Below, piece after piece: positions 3,646 to 63,650 of a DNA stretch of 64,000 bases. Position 1 is the first letter of the stretch; every line of letters starts with the position of its first letter. The position numbers and the translations under genes are program-made. The stretch is from Minisyncoccota bacterium (lineage in GTDB: Bacteria > Patescibacteriota > Minisyncoccia > Phycocordibacterales > UBA9973), in NCBI GenBank assembly GCA_041659785.1, contig JBAZXO010000001.1, forward strand, positions 177,649-241,648, in the 5' to 3' direction. The notes below the pieces were generated by a model. It was given only the letters and a program-made list of their open reading frames with translations. It did not search any database and was not told the DNA's origin.

Positions 3646-4717
3646 GATTATTGGTATGGGTGAAAGTATCACTCTAGGCATGAGGCACGGCTACGTCGTA
3701 AACTCTCCACTGGTCACTGCTTCAGTGAGAAATGCAGTTGCGCTCGCAGAAAAAACTTCTGGCTTAAAAATAAAAAAATGTTTTGTTTCACTTTCTGGCA
3801 CCACGCTCAAAAGTGAGATAAGCGGAGGGAGCACTATCGTTTCAAAAGCTGACGGTGAAGTGACCTCTCTCGATGTGAACAAAGCACTTCAGGATTGTGA
3901 GGACAATTTAAGCTTGGGAAATAAAAAAATTATCCATATATACCCCATTTCTTACCGACTCGATGGGAAAGAAGTCTTGGGTAGATTAGAGGGTATGCGC
4001 GGAACAAAGCTTGAGATTAAAGCACTTTTTGTCACTTATTCCGTTGTACACTTAGAGGATTTACTAGGGGCAATAGCAGAAGCTGGAGTAGAAACTATAG
4101 ACGTGATCGCCTCTCCACTCGCCATCAGCAACATCGCTCTAACCGAAAGACAAAAGATCGTAGGCGTAGCACTCGTAGACATCGGAGACCAGACGACATC
4201 TCTTTCTGTTTTTGAAAATGGATTACTCATGTCAGTCGCTACTTTCTCTATAGGTTCGACTGAAATAACAAATGACATTGCACTCGGTTTTAAAATTTCC
4301 TTAGAAAAAGCAGAAGCTCTAAAGCTTGGAAATAGCACAGAAGAATTTTCAAAGAAAAAACTCGACGAAATCATCGAAGCACGACTATGTGACATCTTTG
4401 AATCAATAGAAAATAATTTAAAGAAAATAAAAAGGTCCGAGCTCTTACCGGCCGGTATAGTATTCGTGGGTGGTGGTGCAAATACTCCAATGCTCGCAGA
4501 ATTATCTAAATCTACACTCAAGCTCCCCTCTAGTATTGGTGCAACAGAAATCTTTGGCAACACAAAAACGAAACTTCGTGACCCAGCTTATTTTAATGCA
4601 ATTGGTTTACTCACCTCCGGAAAAGATACAGGTGGCTATGAAGGCAACTCTTTCAAAAAACTCTTAAAAGACCTAGAAAACACAATAAAATCAAGCATAA
4701 AACAGCTGATGCCATAA
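3554..4717 (+). CDS. ftsA: cell division protein FtsA (actin-like ATPase)
   Basis: The N-terminal VGIDVGSSTTRVVVGE phosphate-1 motif is present. Length is 387 aa. It sits immediately upstream of ftsZ. Confidence 0.9.
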   Translation: MIRNISVGIDVGSSTTRVVVGEFLKGEKNPKIIGMGESITLGMRHGYVVNSPLVTASVRNAVALAEKTSGLKIKKCFVSLSGTTLKSEISGGSTIVSKADGEVTSLDVNKALQDCEDNLSLGNKKIIHIYPISYRLDGKEVLGRLEGMRGTKLEIKALFVTYSVVHLEDLLGAIAEAGVETIDVIASPLAISNIALTERQKIVGVALVDIGDQTTSLSVFENGLLMSVATFSIGSTEITNDIALGFKISLEKAEALKLGNSTEEFSKKKLDEIIEARLCDIFESIENNLKKIKRSELLPAGIVFVGGGANTPMLAELSKSTLKLPSSIGATEIFGNTKTKLRDPAYFNAIGLLTSGKDTGGYEGNSFKKLLKDLENTIKSSIKQLMP

Positions 4718-59056: not shown

Positions 59057-59188
59057 TTAAGCAAACTTTGTTTTGTTTCTAGCAGCTTTTTTAGTAAGCA
59101 TGATACTCTTGACTGCGAGTCTTTTTGCAGTCTTGTGTGAGCGTCTTGATTTCTTTTTGGGACTAAGTGTTGTTCCTCTTTTTGCCAT
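59057..59188 (-). CDS. small basic protein, 43 aa, possibly ribosomal (bL35-like?)
   Basis: MAKRGTTLSPKKKSRRSHKTAKRLAVKSIMLTKKAARNKTKFA. The ...ILTKKA.R.K segment resembles bL35, but the protein is much shorter. Confidence 0.25.
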   Translation of the reverse strand: MAKRGTTLSPKKKSRRSHKTAKRLAVKSIMLTKKAARNKTKFA

Positions 59189-59272: not shown

Positions 59273-59557
59273 TTATTCCTTAGTTTTTAGCCATCTTTGT
59301 AATTCAATTACGGCATTTAATTTTTCTTTATTTTCTTCTACCCTTTTTAAATCTTCTAGCCATCCTTCAACCATAGGTTTCATATCTTTTCCATCTGATT
59401 TACCATTTTCCATTATTACTTCTAAATGTTTTTTAGCTAGATCTAGCTTACCCATATCTAACAAATGCTTTGTAACGCTAGTCGCAGAAAGCCATGCCGC
59501 ATTTCCAATTTTATGTTTAAGGTTTTCGTGAAGATTTTTGTGAACAAGTTTATCCAT
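59273..59557 (-). CDS. hypothetical all-helical protein, 94 aa, co-directional with and downstream of the nuclease gene
   Basis: ORF only. No motif recognised. Confidence 0.35.
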   Translation of the reverse strand: MDKLVHKNLHENLKHKIGNAAWLSATSVTKHLLDMGKLDLAKKHLEVIMENGKSDGKDMKPMVEGWLEDLKRVEENKEKLNAVIELQRWLKTKE

Positions 59558-59615: not shown

Positions 59616-60368
59616 CTACTTTTCTTCTGCCTCACTAACTGCTTTCCTATAGGCGCACCAATCACAATTTTCTCCTGTTTCTGGAATTTTATCACTATCT
59701 AAACATTCTTTTATTTTAAATAAAGTCTTTTCCACCCATGAGTCATCACCCTCATACGCAATTAGATTTACATCAAAATCAATCCTTTTATCGAAGGCTT
59801 CTCGGTCCATTATACCTGTACAATAAACAAAATAGCCTGTATTAGAAACCTTTAAACCATTATGCCTGACTAGCCACTGATATACCTCCATTTGGCGTTT
59901 ATAGCCATCCTGCCACTCTTTATCGAGCTCTTTTACTGCTTCATCCTTTGCAGTAGCTTTGTAGTCTACGACCATATATTGACCCTTACCATCAATCCAT
60001 AAATCATCGATGGCTCCAGTGACGAGTAAACCTGTGGGTTCATGCAAATATTTAACCCCACCGAAATTTCTTCTCCATTCATCAAGTTCTTCATGAGGAG
60101 CTGGTTTCGCATCTATGCCATATTCTTTCTGCAATGGGTGCTGTTGATTCTTCGCGCGATGAATATCAAATTCTTGTTTAAGCAAATGATCGACTGCGCT
60201 GTTGATAGAAAACGGAAATCCTGGCACTCTTTTTATGCCCAATTTATTATCTATATAAAAACACCTTGGGCATTCCAAAAATAAATCAATCTTGGAACGG
60301 CTAAGTTTCCAATTTCCTCCTCCGTAATTCCAAGCTCTCCCCCTGTTTGGTTTGTAATATTCAGACAT
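59616..60368 (-). CDS. PD-(D/E)xK nuclease, Cas4/RecB-like, with a four-Cys cluster
   Basis: D...VVDYKA (D-x(n)-D/E-x-K) core. Cys pair CPRC near the N-terminus and CDWC at the C-terminus, the Cas4/AddB-type arrangement. Confidence 0.6.
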   Translation of the reverse strand: MSEYYKPNRGRAWNYGGGNWKLSRSKIDLFLECPRCFYIDNKLGIKRVPGFPFSINSAVDHLLKQEFDIHRAKNQQHPLQKEYGIDAKPAPHEELDEWRRNFGGVKYLHEPTGLLVTGAIDDLWIDGKGQYMVVDYKATAKDEAVKELDKEWQDGYKRQMEVYQWLVRHNGLKVSNTGYFVYCTGIMDREAFDKRIDFDVNLIAYEGDDSWVEKTLFKIKECLDSDKIPETGENCDWCAYRKAVSEAEEK

Positions 60369-60403: not shown

Positions 60404-60436
60404 CAAAAAAAAGGTCATCTTACGATGACCTTTTTT
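60404..60436. terminator. orphan bidirectional terminator-like hairpin in a divergent intergenic region
   Basis: A9-GGTCATC-ttac-GATGACC-T6. There is no upstream gene on either strand to terminate. Confidence 0.5.
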
Positions 60437-60457: not shown

Positions 60458-60633
60458 AAGTTGGAACCAATGGGAAAGCTGGGTTTTCGGAGCATACGAC
60501 ACCCTTATCGGAAATTATCGGTCTGAAAATAGCCTTGTTTGTTAAGTATAAATAGATATCTAGTATCACAAGAATAGAATTAAATAGCTTATATTGTGGA
60601 CAACTTTATTAAATAATATGATACAATTATTCC

Positions 60634-61119
60634 ATGAATAAATTAGCAGTAAGTGTGCCTGCTAGCTCAATAGCAGAATACTTTATTCAAAAATCTAATC
60701 TTTCATCTCCGCGAAGGGTTATAACTAATAAGAAAATTCAAAAACTTGTCTATTATGCTCAAGCATGGTCTTTGGCTATAAACAAACGTCCTCTTTTTGA
60801 AGAAAAGATTGAAGCGTGGGTGCATGGACCTGCAATAAAAAGTGTCTATGATAGATATAAAAAATTTGGTTTTAGTGTAATAAAAAAAGAACCTGATTTA
60901 GCTTTAATCAAGGTTATATCTGAGAATGATAAAAATATTTTAGAACAAGTATGGGATGTTTATGGTAAATACGATTCTTCTTACTTAGAAATGCTTACTC
61001 ATTCCGAACTCCCTTGGCAAAAAGCGAGAGAAGGACTTACTGTTGATGAAAGTTCTGAAAATGAAATAAGTATTGCTTCTATGCAAGAGTTTTACTCATC
61101 TAAACTTAAAAAAAATTAA
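60634..61119 (+). CDS. Panacea-domain (DUF4065, SocA/GepA-like) protein, putative antitoxin
   Basis: KLVYYAQAWSLAINKRPLFEEKIEAWVHGPAIKSVYDRYKKFG matches the DUF4065 consensus as I recall it (KLqKLlYyaqgw.La..g.pLf.e.feAW.hGPV.p.vY..yk.yG). Confidence 0.65.
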   Translation: MNKLAVSVPASSIAEYFIQKSNLSSPRRVITNKKIQKLVYYAQAWSLAINKRPLFEEKIEAWVHGPAIKSVYDRYKKFGFSVIKKEPDLALIKVISENDKNILEQVWDVYGKYDSSYLEMLTHSELPWQKAREGLTVDESSENEISIASMQEFYSSKLKKN

Positions 61120-61128
61120 TTTAAGTTT

Positions 61129-61548
61129 ATGTCTATTCCAGAAGAAGCAAGTAAGTTGGCAGTAAGTGACTCTTTAATTCCAGAAAATATCACCCAGCTT
61201 CCACAACGAGAAGATGACCCTGAGTCTTCGCCATTTATGATTTCATTGGCTAGGTATAACGAAAAAGAGTGTGGTATAGACAACATAGATAAAAAAAGAG
61301 CTGTAAAAGCCTTAAAACTAATACGAGAAATAGGAGTTAATACGTATTCCGAATCAGATTTAAGGAGTTTGAAATTAAAACCTGTTTATCCAAATGGAGA
61401 TTATAAAAAATTATACAAAGGATTACCCTTAGACATTGAGATAAAGGAATTATTTATTGACTCAGACAAAGGAAGGATTTTCTTTTTTACTCTTCAGAAA
61501 ATTTTTTATCTTATATCAATAACAGATTCTCATTACAATACCCATTGA
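61129..61548 (+). CDS. uncharacterised 139-aa protein 9 nt downstream of the Panacea gene, a candidate cognate toxin
   Basis: Tight operonic spacing. Helix-then-beta pattern with a C-terminal ...SHYNTH, reminiscent of RelE/YoeB-fold toxins (speculative). Confidence 0.4.
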   Translation: MSIPEEASKLAVSDSLIPENITQLPQREDDPESSPFMISLARYNEKECGIDNIDKKRAVKALKLIREIGVNTYSESDLRSLKLKPVYPNGDYKKLYKGLPLDIEIKELFIDSDKGRIFFFTLQKIFYLISITDSHYNTH

Positions 61549-61734: not shown

Positions 61735-61781
61735 TAGTTTACTGGTTGACACTTAGGATAATAAGAGTAGCATTTAAGTAT

Positions 61782-62585
61782 ATGAAAAAATGTCAAAAAT
61801 GTTTTGAAGAACTTTCTGATGATGCTAAATTTTGTGGAAAATGTGGAGAAAAGATGAGTGAAGTTGTTACAAGTAATTTTTCAGAAAATAATCATGAAAA
61901 TATTACCAAAACACCACTTATAAAAACATTAGTGGCATATGTTGTAGGAATTTTCGCATGTATTCTTGTTATTGGTCTTGTTAATTCAATAATGACTGGA
62001 ATCATCCCTGTAATGATAGGAGTAATTTTAGGAGTATCTGTAGCAGATAAAATAATTGTTAAAATAACTGGAAAACCAGTAAAAAAATTTTATTTTGGAA
62101 AACATAAAGACGGTGAAGAAAAAAAGGGGGTAAGTAAAACTTTAATTTACGTTATTATTGGTTTTGTTGTTCTTGTAATTATTTCTTCTATAATACTTTA
62201 TTACCCAAGTTTTACTAAAGAAATAAATAAGGAAACAGGGAACGCAGGTAATACAGAACTTACATATGAGGTTATGCAAGAAGTAGCAAATGGTATGAAT
62301 AAGGAATATCCACAAATGATAGATTCTGACACTAGGTTAGATTCTGTTACTGGAGCAGAAAATACTCTTTCTTATCACTATACACTTGTAAATTATAGTC
62401 TTGCTGACATAGATGTCTCTAAGCTTAACGATATACTAAGAGGAGATATTGTAAATTTAGTTTGTACAACTCCAGAAATGAAAATTTACGTTAAAAATAA
62501 AGCTGTTTTGAATTATACTTATTATGATAAAAGTGGTTTGTTTTTAATAAATATTCCAGTAAATACTGGAACTGATTGTAAATAA
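61782..62585 (+). CDS. zinc-ribbon (CxxC...CxxC) membrane protein with a C-terminal extracytoplasmic domain
   Basis: MKKCQKCFEEL...KFCGKCGEKM, then two to three transmembrane helices. The ATG at 61782 is preferred over the TTG at 61746. Confidence 0.5.
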   Translation: MKKCQKCFEELSDDAKFCGKCGEKMSEVVTSNFSENNHENITKTPLIKTLVAYVVGIFACILVIGLVNSIMTGIIPVMIGVILGVSVADKIIVKITGKPVKKFYFGKHKDGEEKKGVSKTLIYVIIGFVVLVIISSIILYYPSFTKEINKETGNAGNTELTYEVMQEVANGMNKEYPQMIDSDTRLDSVTGAENTLSYHYTLVNYSLADIDVSKLNDILRGDIVNLVCTTPEMKIYVKNKAVLNYTYYDKSGLFLINIPVNTGTDCK

Positions 62586-62591
62586 AAATTT

Positions 62592-62963
62592 ATGTTTTGT
62601 GAAAATTGTGGAGATAAAATTAAAAAAGAGGAAAAATTTTGCACAAAATGTGGTAAAAGTATCAATTTGCAAGAAATAAAAAATGAAAGGTGGTGGCATC
62701 GTCTACTTAAAGTTTTGTATATAATTGCATATTTTCCATTGATTGGTATTGTTTCATTAACATGGAGTGAAAATTTTCCACATTGCTATACTTATACATA
62801 TTCAACCCCCGATTGTTATGGGTCTTATGGTGAAGCATTTTTATATTCACTTTTAGCCTTGGTAATTTATATGACAATTCTTAGGTTGGCAAAAATTGCC
62901 GTGCTTTATATTGTACTTGGTCGTAGACCAGAATGGGGGAAGGAATTTAAAAGATTTTTTTAG
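62592..62963 (+). CDS. zinc-ribbon membrane protein (paralogous N-terminus)
   Basis: MFCENCGDKI...KFCTKCGKSI, then two transmembrane helices. Confidence 0.5.
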   Translation: MFCENCGDKIKKEEKFCTKCGKSINLQEIKNERWWHRLLKVLYIIAYFPLIGIVSLTWSENFPHCYTYTYSTPDCYGSYGEAFLYSLLALVIYMTILRLAKIAVLYIVLGRRPEWGKEFKRFF

Positions 62964-63160: not shown

Positions 63161-63515
63161 AATAATATAAATAATTTTTTACACTTTACTTTTCTAAAAT
63201 ATTAGAGTATAATTATTTTAGTGTTCTTTAGTTTTAAATAAAAAGTTTTTGAGAGGTATTATATGCGAAAATAGTTTTTGCGATTAGAATAATATTCTTA
63301 AAAACAAATCAACGAATGTATTTAATTTAATGATGTTCAATCAAAATCTAGTGGAGGTACACGGAGAGACGGGCCAATATGGAAATGCCACTATGATAAT
63401 TAGTACCCGATATAATAATATTATTCATTAAAAATAAATGTGTGGAGTTGGTAATTTGATAGGCTTGCCTAGTTAATTACCAATTCTTCATATTTTTAAA
63501 TAGAAAGGTAATAAA

Positions 63516-63545
63516 AAGGCGACCATCAAGGTCGTTTTTTTGTTT
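63516..63545. terminator. terminator-like hairpin CGACC-atcaa-GGTCG flanked by A5 and T7 runs
   Basis: Direct read. The stem is short (5 bp), so this is weak. Confidence 0.4.
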
Positions 63546-63650
63546 GTGCAAAAAGGCGACATTACTAAGGATGTCCACCTAAAGTCTATTTATTAATCGA
63601 CAGGTCGAAGTGGACATCGCCTGTTGATTGATAAGTAGATTTTTTAATTT

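Follow-up and report, generated by a model that had tools for sequence, protein, structure and literature searches.

Pairs made of a toxin gene (panT) and an antitoxin gene (panA) whose product carries the Panacea (DUF4065) domain are the closest described relatives of the two-gene element considered here, which lies at positions 60634-61548 of a 64,000-nucleotide stretch (the window) of the genome of a Minisyncoccota bacterium (contig JBAZXO010000001.1, positions 177,649 to 241,648). In the part of the study of Kurata et al. 2022 used here, to which all statements on that work below are limited, the antitoxin-first gene order is the commoner one among these PanAT pairs, the tested PanA proteins form complexes with their toxins, and none of the ten validated pairs reported there has a toxin of RelE fold (PMC8832971). 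Partners with such a fold were assigned by HHpred/CDD in Dataset S1 for the PanT clusters T14 (HigB-2-like), T28 and T58 (YoeB/RelE-like) and T59 (ParE); these four are predictions only, and the Neisseria gonorrhoeae T28 representative was 'stuck in cloning' (PMC8832971). Cluster T1 spans many phyla, and its one tested member, from Clostridium cadaveris, was described as an 'mRNase' and found to be toxic in Escherichia coli (PMC8832971). Direct neutralisation is reported for standalone Panacea antitoxins, in one case by contact with a toxin segment at the N-terminus that is unstructured (Ernits et al. 2023, PMC10440598).

The type VI system SocAB of Caulobacter is also related, since its antitoxin shares the domain SocA_Panacea (PF13274) with the first protein of our pair. 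Its toxin, SocB, binds DnaN. The other systems relevant for comparison are YoeB-YefM, RelBE, HigBA and YafQ-DinJ, whose toxins resemble the second protein of our pair in predicted fold, as described below.

A Panacea gene paired with a member of a large protein family

The window holds one copy each of panA and panT, and the elements of the locus are as follows:

60594-60633, + strand: upstream region travelling with the module; DNA similarity to the closest relative, L001, begins at 60594
60634-61119, + strand: panA (ORF1), 161 amino acids (aa), ATG start, putative antitoxin
61120-61128, + strand: panA-panT spacer of 9 nt (TTTAAGTTT), from the panA stop to the panT start, without a Shine-Dalgarno sequence
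61129-61548, + strand: panT (ORF2), 139 aa, ATG start, putative toxin
61129-61233, + strand: N-terminal extension of PanT (aa 1-35), acidic and predicted to be disordered
61234-61548, + strand: core of PanT (aa 36-139), with a predicted RelE/ParE-superfamily fold

Both open reading frames, their strand and the 9-nt gap are as given in the first-pass annotation, which had been made from the DNA letters alone and had proposed a novel toxin-antitoxin pair.

ORF1 matches the SocA_Panacea model with 75.9 bits (E 5.9e-21) against a gathering cutoff of 25.7, which bears out the Panacea signature reported for it earlier and places it above the Pfam score that characterises PanAT antitoxins. The domain occupies residues 35-129 and covers the full 113-position model, and the protein also matches the phage family phrog_1281 (E 1.1e-43). 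It has neither an extra N-terminal DNA-binding or neutralisation domain nor any other additional domain, and is therefore a standalone Panacea protein; its C-terminal tail is lysine-rich (…YSSKLKKN). The NCBIfam equivalog model for SocA (SocA_antitoxin) gives 52.5 bits against a cutoff of 190, and ORF1, judged by its sequence, is not a SocA orthologue. No PADLOC model matches ORF1 or ORF2.

Direct searches with ORF2 of Pfam, PADLOC, PHROGs and PDB sequences yielded no match, and a profile search of PDB sequences with its family returned only a chance match to uL22. Its sole direct signal is a sub-threshold match to the NCBIfam model NF046006 (MAG6450_fam; 14.2 bits, E 0.049, cutoff 40), in which residues 36-135 align with positions 1-99 of the 103 in the model. 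The same protein sequence has been deposited, annotated as hypothetical, from a metagenome-assembled genome (MAG) of Candidatus Paceibacterota. A word-indexed homologue search badly undercounted the family, with 10 and then 30 matches; an exhaustive HMM search built on an alignment of 10 clusters found 320 representatives at 50% identity (E <= 0.001), including 168 with E <= 1e-10, nearly all of them 135-150 aa long. ORF2 is therefore a member of a real and sizeable protein family. The earlier description of ORF2 as having no recognisable family holds for direct library matches, but the protein is not an orphan, given these representatives and the link to MAG6450 proteins described below.

The family is found mostly in Patescibacteria and in some Chlamydiota, with named records from Parcubacteria/Zambryskibacteria, Saccharibacteria, Kaiser-, Vogel- and Doudnabacteria, Rhabdochlamydiaceae, Anoxychlamydiales, a Melioribacteraceae MAG and a Gammaproteobacteria MAG. 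Across 115 diverse members, Y92 and H135 are invariant, and M1, S39, Y43, C48, G69, E107, R116 and F118 are at least 90% conserved. The N-terminal extension carries conserved M-x-IP and IP motifs, with M1, I3 and P4 nearly invariant among close relatives of ORF2.

The two genes are closely linked across genomes. At 31 of the 32 loci fetched through ORF2 relatives, which come from several phyla, the gene immediately before the toxin gene, in the same orientation, is a Panacea gene (47-81% identity to ORF1), so that the pairing of panA and panT is far beyond chance. The one exception (L032) holds only a 26-residue toxin remnant, and a locus beyond these 32, that of protein P0172, shows the same Panacea-then-toxin arrangement. 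ORF2 relatives thus do adjoin an antitoxin-type gene. The junction between the two genes ranges from -32 to +11 nt in the relatives and is often a 4-nt ATGA overlap.

The genes on either side vary among the loci: in the window they are Cas4-like and zinc-ribbon genes, in L001 nucleotidyl-transferases, in L004 and L009 SmpB and FtsH, in L010 DUF347 and amidase, in L013 GTPase and helix-turn-helix (HTH) genes, and next to P0172 a sulfate transporter and YidD. DNA similarity between the window and L001 runs from 60594 to 61541 and then stops, which delimits a unit made of the two genes and about 40 nt upstream; the best explanation is that the module moves as a unit of about 950 bp. With flanks that vary and a similarity that ends at the module borders, the conservation does not extend to an operon of more than three genes, as is expected of PanAT pairs. 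In one distant relative, L016, the Panacea gene is preceded at a distance of 33 nt by a reverse transcriptase gene of the same orientation (1495-2517; RVT_1, 340 aa), possibly a retron-like or defence-island setting.

A natural single-chain fusion of the two proteins was found in Candidatus Anoxychlamydiales (P0101, NGX32563.1). It is 306 aa long, with the Panacea domain at the N-terminus and the ORF2 domain at the C-terminus, keeps the N-terminal extension of the toxin between the two, and is encoded in two assembly records (L038 3001-3921 and L039 2102-3022). In related Chlamydiota-type loci the genes overlap by 23-32 nt, so that a 1-nt indel could create such a fusion. In a Candidatus Doudnabacteria MAG the match to the toxin gene (L031 729-1120) is split into 729-962 and 965-1120, suggestive of a pseudogene or of a stop within the gene; the remnant at L032 (2501-2578), on a second contig of the same MAG, corresponds to 26 C-terminal residues of the toxin and has no Panacea gene. 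These two loci may represent toxin decay.

By their sequence features and arrangement, ORF1 and ORF2 form a genuine PanAT-type module with predicted activity.

Predicted fold and candidate active site of PanT

An AlphaFold2 model of ORF2 based on 10 sequences was poor (pLDDT 60). With an alignment of 115 sequences the mean pLDDT is 84 and the pTM 0.70, with values above 90 over residues ~31-135, and residues 1-30 (pLDDT about 59) look disordered. The model consists of a strand (37-39), three helices (55-71, 75-79 and 90-96), a short strand (83-86) and a C-terminal three-stranded antiparallel sheet (105-109, 116-122 and 125-132). Helices packed on a small antiparallel sheet are characteristic of the RelE-type fold, and comparison of the model with known structures gave the following scores:

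Txp40: 8.3 (top match, which we do not interpret)
HigB 6kml: 7.4
YoeB 7v6w: 7.4
archaeal RelE 1wmi: 7.3
RelE3 3bpq: 7.2
YafQ: 6.9
ParE (several): 5.1-5.5
RNase Sa: 4.0
barnase: 3.2-3.3

In a Foldseek search RelE 1wmi (E 4.8e-3, probability 1.00) is followed by YafQ, the YoeB-type RelK and HigB; the viral structure library gave no significant match. As the two comparisons agree, the resemblance to RelE/YoeB, which had been advanced beforehand as a guess, is supported at the level of the fold. It is not supported at the level of sequence: no Pfam toxin model matches ORF2, and among the 115 members two touch Gp49/DUF891 weakly (E 0.0066). Alignment by hhalign of the family to a YoeB profile reaches a probability of 0.4%, and alignments to E. 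coli YoeB (sequence verified against PDB 2a6q) and to a four-sequence profile of PDB chains stay below 1%. With hhalign not significant, we do not claim membership of the YoeB family for ORF2.

Three of the conserved polar residues are candidates for a catalytic site:

61447-61449, + strand: candidate catalytic E107, in the first strand of the sheet
61474-61476, + strand: candidate catalytic R116, at the start of the second strand
61531-61533, + strand: candidate catalytic H135, just past the last strand

Their order in the chain, Glu, Arg and a C-terminal His, is that of YoeB (E46, R65 and H83 in the verified sequence) and also that of RNase Sa and barnase. In these proteins the residues are said, in the 2005 work of Kamada and Hanaoka, to serve as general base, transition-state stabiliser and general acid, respectively.

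Relationship to the MAG6450 family

The closest plasmid-borne relatives of ORF1 include proteins of a Pontibacter plasmid and of a 4-kb E. coli plasmid; the plasmid link was found through the Panacea gene, as tblastn of ORF2 against plasmids gave nothing. The open reading frame directly after PanA on the Pontibacter plasmid encodes a protein (P0181) that NCBI names 'MAG6450 family protein', and which matches both the ORF2-family HMM (E 5.6e-10) and NF046006 (56.7 bits, above the cutoff of 40). Its gene (L034 1984-2472, Pontibacter sp. G13 plasmid NZ_CP134697.1) is missing from the gene table of the plasmid collection, which shows a 1.1-kb 'empty' stretch at this place.

An alignment of 35 relatives of P0181 (A5), mostly from Bacteroidota and about 150 aa long, was compared with the ORF2-family alignment (A2) by hhalign, which gave a probability of 95.9% (E 5.2e-9) over 132 columns. 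This match takes in the N-terminal 'IP' extension and sets E107, R116 and H135 on the invariant E, R and H of the MAG6450 family. When the A5 HMM was run on all open reading frames of the window, ORF2 ranked first (E 0.0012). The partner on the E. coli plasmid, a 139-aa protein whose gene begins 4 nt beyond that of PanA, gives E 4.9e-11 with the MAG6450 profile. ORF2 itself remains well below the curated cutoff of NF046006, and 15 of the 115 members of its branch give weak matches to that model (best E 1.4e-4). The profile-profile match and the bridging Pontibacter protein thus make ORF2 a distant offshoot of the MAG6450 family that falls short of NCBI's threshold, with homology to bona fide members at the superfamily level and a gene that adjoins a Panacea gene in the window as on the Pontibacter and E. 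coli plasmids. Other Panacea partners differ: those of Lactobacillus gasseri and of N. gonorrhoeae (T28-type, L037) match neither the ORF2 nor the MAG6450 profiles, and in Bacillus cereus PanA is followed by a large unrelated protein.

The name 'prophage protein ps3' is one that we take to be an old annotation of DUF4065 proteins. MAG6440 of Mycoplasma agalactiae PG2, which adjoins MAG6450, is annotated as 'putative prophage protein ps3' (PMC3179502). The pair of M. agalactiae 5632 was placed in PanT cluster T1, with a standalone PanA, the antitoxin gene first and a 2-nt gap (PMC8832971). Because of this pair, the MAG6450 family is probably the same as cluster T1; in the part of the dataset of Kurata et al. 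used here there is no HHpred fold assignment for T1, and our literature search found no paper on the Patescibacteria branch. The proposal that ORF2 represents a novel toxin family is accordingly not borne out, since it represents a divergent branch of a catalogued, Panacea-associated family. What is new is the branch, which is divergent and centred on the candidate phyla radiation (CPR) and Chlamydiota; the class of Panacea plus MAG6450-type pairs has already been catalogued computationally.

The pair at 60634-61548 agrees with Panacea plus MAG6450 pairs in having a standalone PanA without an N-terminal domain, the antitoxin gene first and a short or overlapping junction. Their toxins, like ORF2, are about 140-155 aa long and have an N-terminal 'IP' extension, a strand with a conserved Cys and a C-terminal sheet bearing E, R and H. 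Unlike the catalogued family, the ORF2 branch has most of its members in Patescibacteria and Chlamydiota, groups with very little coverage in the RefSeq-based catalogue. The pair differs from YoeB-YefM, RelBE, HigBA and YafQ-DinJ in that ORF2 has no detectable sequence homology to their toxins, and the antitoxin is a globular Panacea domain instead of YefM/Phd, RelB or HigA as in YoeB-YefM, RelBE and HigBA. ORF2 is about 50 residues longer than these toxins and has, besides an additional helix and strand, a conserved stretch of ~35 aa added at its N-terminus. The T14 PanAs of Saccharibacteria carry an HTH N-terminal domain, whereas ORF1 lacks it. SocAB is set apart by the low score of ORF1 on the SocA equivalog and by the RelE-type fold of ORF2, for which Pfam and NCBIfam gave no link to SocB; with neither a SocA equivalog nor a SocB toxin, the pair was not assigned to that system.

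Expression signals

An extended -10-like element (TG-A-TACAAT) is present at 60619-60627 and ends 6 nt before the panA ATG, upstream of which there is no Shine-Dalgarno sequence. The same geometry of a -10-like hexamer, 6 nt and an ATG is readable in L001, L009 and L004/L005 (in L004/L005 with the start called at 4498). This suggests a panA mRNA with no leader or almost none. The site was not called by a promoter consensus scan, for lack of a -35 match, and its promoter function is thus putative. Flanking direct repeats, an operator palindrome or a terminator could not be assigned to the module. The short or overlapping junctions between the two genes and the lack of a Shine-Dalgarno sequence in the spacer suggest that translation of PanT is coupled to that of PanA.

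A DnaA-box-like motif (TGTGGACAA) lies upstream of panA at 60595-60603, and comparable motifs are found upstream of panA in L009 (at -52, perfect TTATCCACA) and L004 (at -44). Of 22 upstream regions, 5 contain it, compared with about 3% of background windows, a level reached in 1 of 2000 shuffles. The promoter-proximal cases are confined to a closely related clade and are therefore not independent; in that clade it may serve as an operator or as an element of the -35 region.

Proposed function and alternatives

We consider that the locus is probably a bicistronic toxin-antitoxin-type module in which an RNase of RelE fold, PanT, is held inactive by its Panacea partner. PanA would be made first, with PanT translationally coupled to it. 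The residues Glu107, Arg116 and His135 of PanT most likely form an acid-base site of the microbial-RNase type that cleaves RNA, and the target would probably be mRNA on the ribosome, as for RelE-family toxins, leading to translation arrest. PanA most likely keeps PanT inactive by direct binding until it is lost or triggered, possibly through the conserved disordered N-terminal extension of PanT. Residues 1-35 are a candidate PanA-binding handle because they align across both families, are kept in the natural fusion and are a plausible counterpart of the toxin region contacted in a described case (PMC10440598). RNase chemistry, ribosome dependence, toxicity, neutralisation by binding and a biological role in module stabilisation or phage defence are thus all predicted properties.

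Several points weigh against this model. At larger distances PanA is better conserved (47-63% identity to ORF1) than the toxin (25-40% to ORF2), whereas the labile antitoxins of type II pairs are not usually the more conserved partner. The module also showed no terminator, operator or Shine-Dalgarno sequence. ORF2 has no significant sequence similarity to the RelE, YoeB, HigB or ParE families, so that the RNase assignment rests on the predicted fold and the conserved residues, and the spatial clustering of E107, R116 and H135 is something we infer. The equation of MAG6450 with T1 is drawn from the M. agalactiae pair and not from sequence. Finally, in E. coli the T1 toxin of C. cadaveris was not neutralised by its PanA (PMC8832971), so that neutralisation by simple binding is a putative feature of this class.

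The failure of the C. cadaveris PanA to neutralise its toxic partner is also what first speaks for a different role of PanA, as a sensor or regulator that stays attached to PanT and sets the activity of PanT free on a trigger (phage, abortive infection), or as a SocA-like proteolytic adaptor. The stronger conservation of PanA and the natural covalent fusion, which recalls the single-chain fused system CapRel, point in the same direction, as do defence-like or mobile neighbours (the reverse transcriptase of L016, RusA in L015 and GIY-YIG in L001 and L009). A sensory role for Panacea is favoured, and abortive-infection defence proposed for it, by Ernits et al. 2023 (PMC10440598), whose model for standalone Panacea proteins is, on the other hand, direct neutralisation. 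The score of ORF1 on the SocA equivalog (52.5 bits against 190) and an ORF2 that is not SocB-like also count against such a role; neither protein matches a PADLOC model, and no phage trigger is known. The non-neutralisation, the conservation of PanA and the fusion fit a sensor or regulator at least as well as a labile antitoxin; overall we nevertheless regard such a role as rather unlikely for this pair. An extension of the same idea to the whole class, in which Panacea plus MAG6450-type pairs are not classical type II systems but consist of a stable sensor bound, or in one lineage fused, to a RelE-fold RNase released on a trigger such as phage infection, appears doubtful.

Other readings concern PanT itself. 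A catalytically inert RelE-fold regulator or nucleic-acid-binding factor, working with Panacea as a conserved and non-toxic pair in reduced-genome symbionts, would be in line with the concentration of the family in Patescibacteria and Chlamydiota and with the 8 of 25 PanT candidates of Kurata et al. that were not toxic in E. coli (PMC8832971). We hold it to be improbable, as the polar residues of active-site type are invariant or nearly so across the 115 members and the MAG6450 family, a T1 member was toxic (PMC8832971), and the split toxin gene of L031 together with the 26-aa remnant of L032 without PanA would be in keeping with a toxic gene in decay. A ParE-like poison of DNA gyrase, which the shared superfamily fold would allow, has slightly lower odds still: the RNase members of the superfamily outscore ParE in the fold comparison, and gyrase poisons of the ParE type do without such a set of polar residues, so that an RNase is favoured. 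As to the possibility that ORF2 is not a real gene, or that it adjoins ORF1 fortuitously, nothing supports it apart from the absence of a direct family match, and it is already refuted by the 320 family representatives (E <= 0.001), the confident fold and the same partner at 31 of 32 loci; we assign it a negligible probability. The RNase module held in check by PanA is thus the model that we retain.

Genomic surroundings

The pair is bordered by the following genes:

59616-60368, - strand: PD-(D/E)XK Cas4-like gene, divergent from panA
61746-62585 and 62592-62963: two zinc-ribbon membrane protein genes

The first-pass annotation had described these neighbours as part of an accessory islet. The Cas4-like and zinc-ribbon genes are indeed there, but the label of islet was not retained, because the composition is not distinct from that of the surroundings: the GC content of the panA-panT pair is 0.31-0.32, that of the neighbours 0.28-0.39 and that of the window 0.362. 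An AT-rich spacer reported at 63161-63650 was confirmed, with a GC content of 0.278 and no + strand open reading frame of at least 40 aa. In an Rfam scan of 59-64 kb the sole match was a sub-threshold RNAI in this spacer (63443-63543, 24.7 bits against a gathering score of 47, E 0.18), which is most likely due to chance.

A perfect 13-bp hairpin (AAAAAAGGTCATC-ttac-GATGACCTTTTTT) with an A-run and a T-run at its sides is present at 60407-60436. It resembles a bidirectional terminator, yet the genes that flank it, the Cas4-like gene (start at 60368, -) and panA (start at 60634, +), point away from each other; a minus-strand sequence resembling a promoter, from 60476 to 60447 (10/12 matches, with TG), would put the hairpin in the 5' leader of the Cas4-like gene. 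Between an MFS transporter gene and the Cas4-like gene there are two small open reading frames, 59057-59188 (-) and 59273-59557 (-); one encodes a very basic peptide of 43 aa (MAKRGTTLSPKKKSRRSHKTAKRL…) and the other a protein of 94 aa without a convincing family match.

The sign of the GC skew flips at ~60.4 kb, where the gene strand changes, as it does at several other points of the window, and the window contains 25 DnaA-box-like matches against 19 ± 5 expected, without enrichment. As the skew tracks gene strand and the matches are not enriched, the flip is no evidence for an origin, and a replication origin at ~60.4 kb, considered on account of the skew and strand switch and the DnaA-box-like motif upstream of panA, was rejected.

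Implications

This locus leaves the current picture of toxin-antitoxin biology unchanged. It adds to the Panacea toxin-antitoxin network a widespread branch of 320 clusters, mostly from Patescibacteria and Chlamydiota, and gives the MAG6450 family, for which neither a Pfam model nor a characterised mechanism exists, a structural and catalytic hypothesis in the form of a RelE/YoeB-like fold with a Glu-Arg-His site. If Panacea proteins of this class were sensors, the pairs would represent a compact abortive-infection defence for ultra-small episymbionts, and both the non-neutralisation by the T1 PanA and the slower evolution of PanA relative to the toxin would be explained. Confirmation of the RNase assignment of PanT and of the link to T1 would account for a class of Panacea partners that is very widespread across phyla, and it would follow that the reduced genomes of the CPR keep mobile translation-arrest modules.

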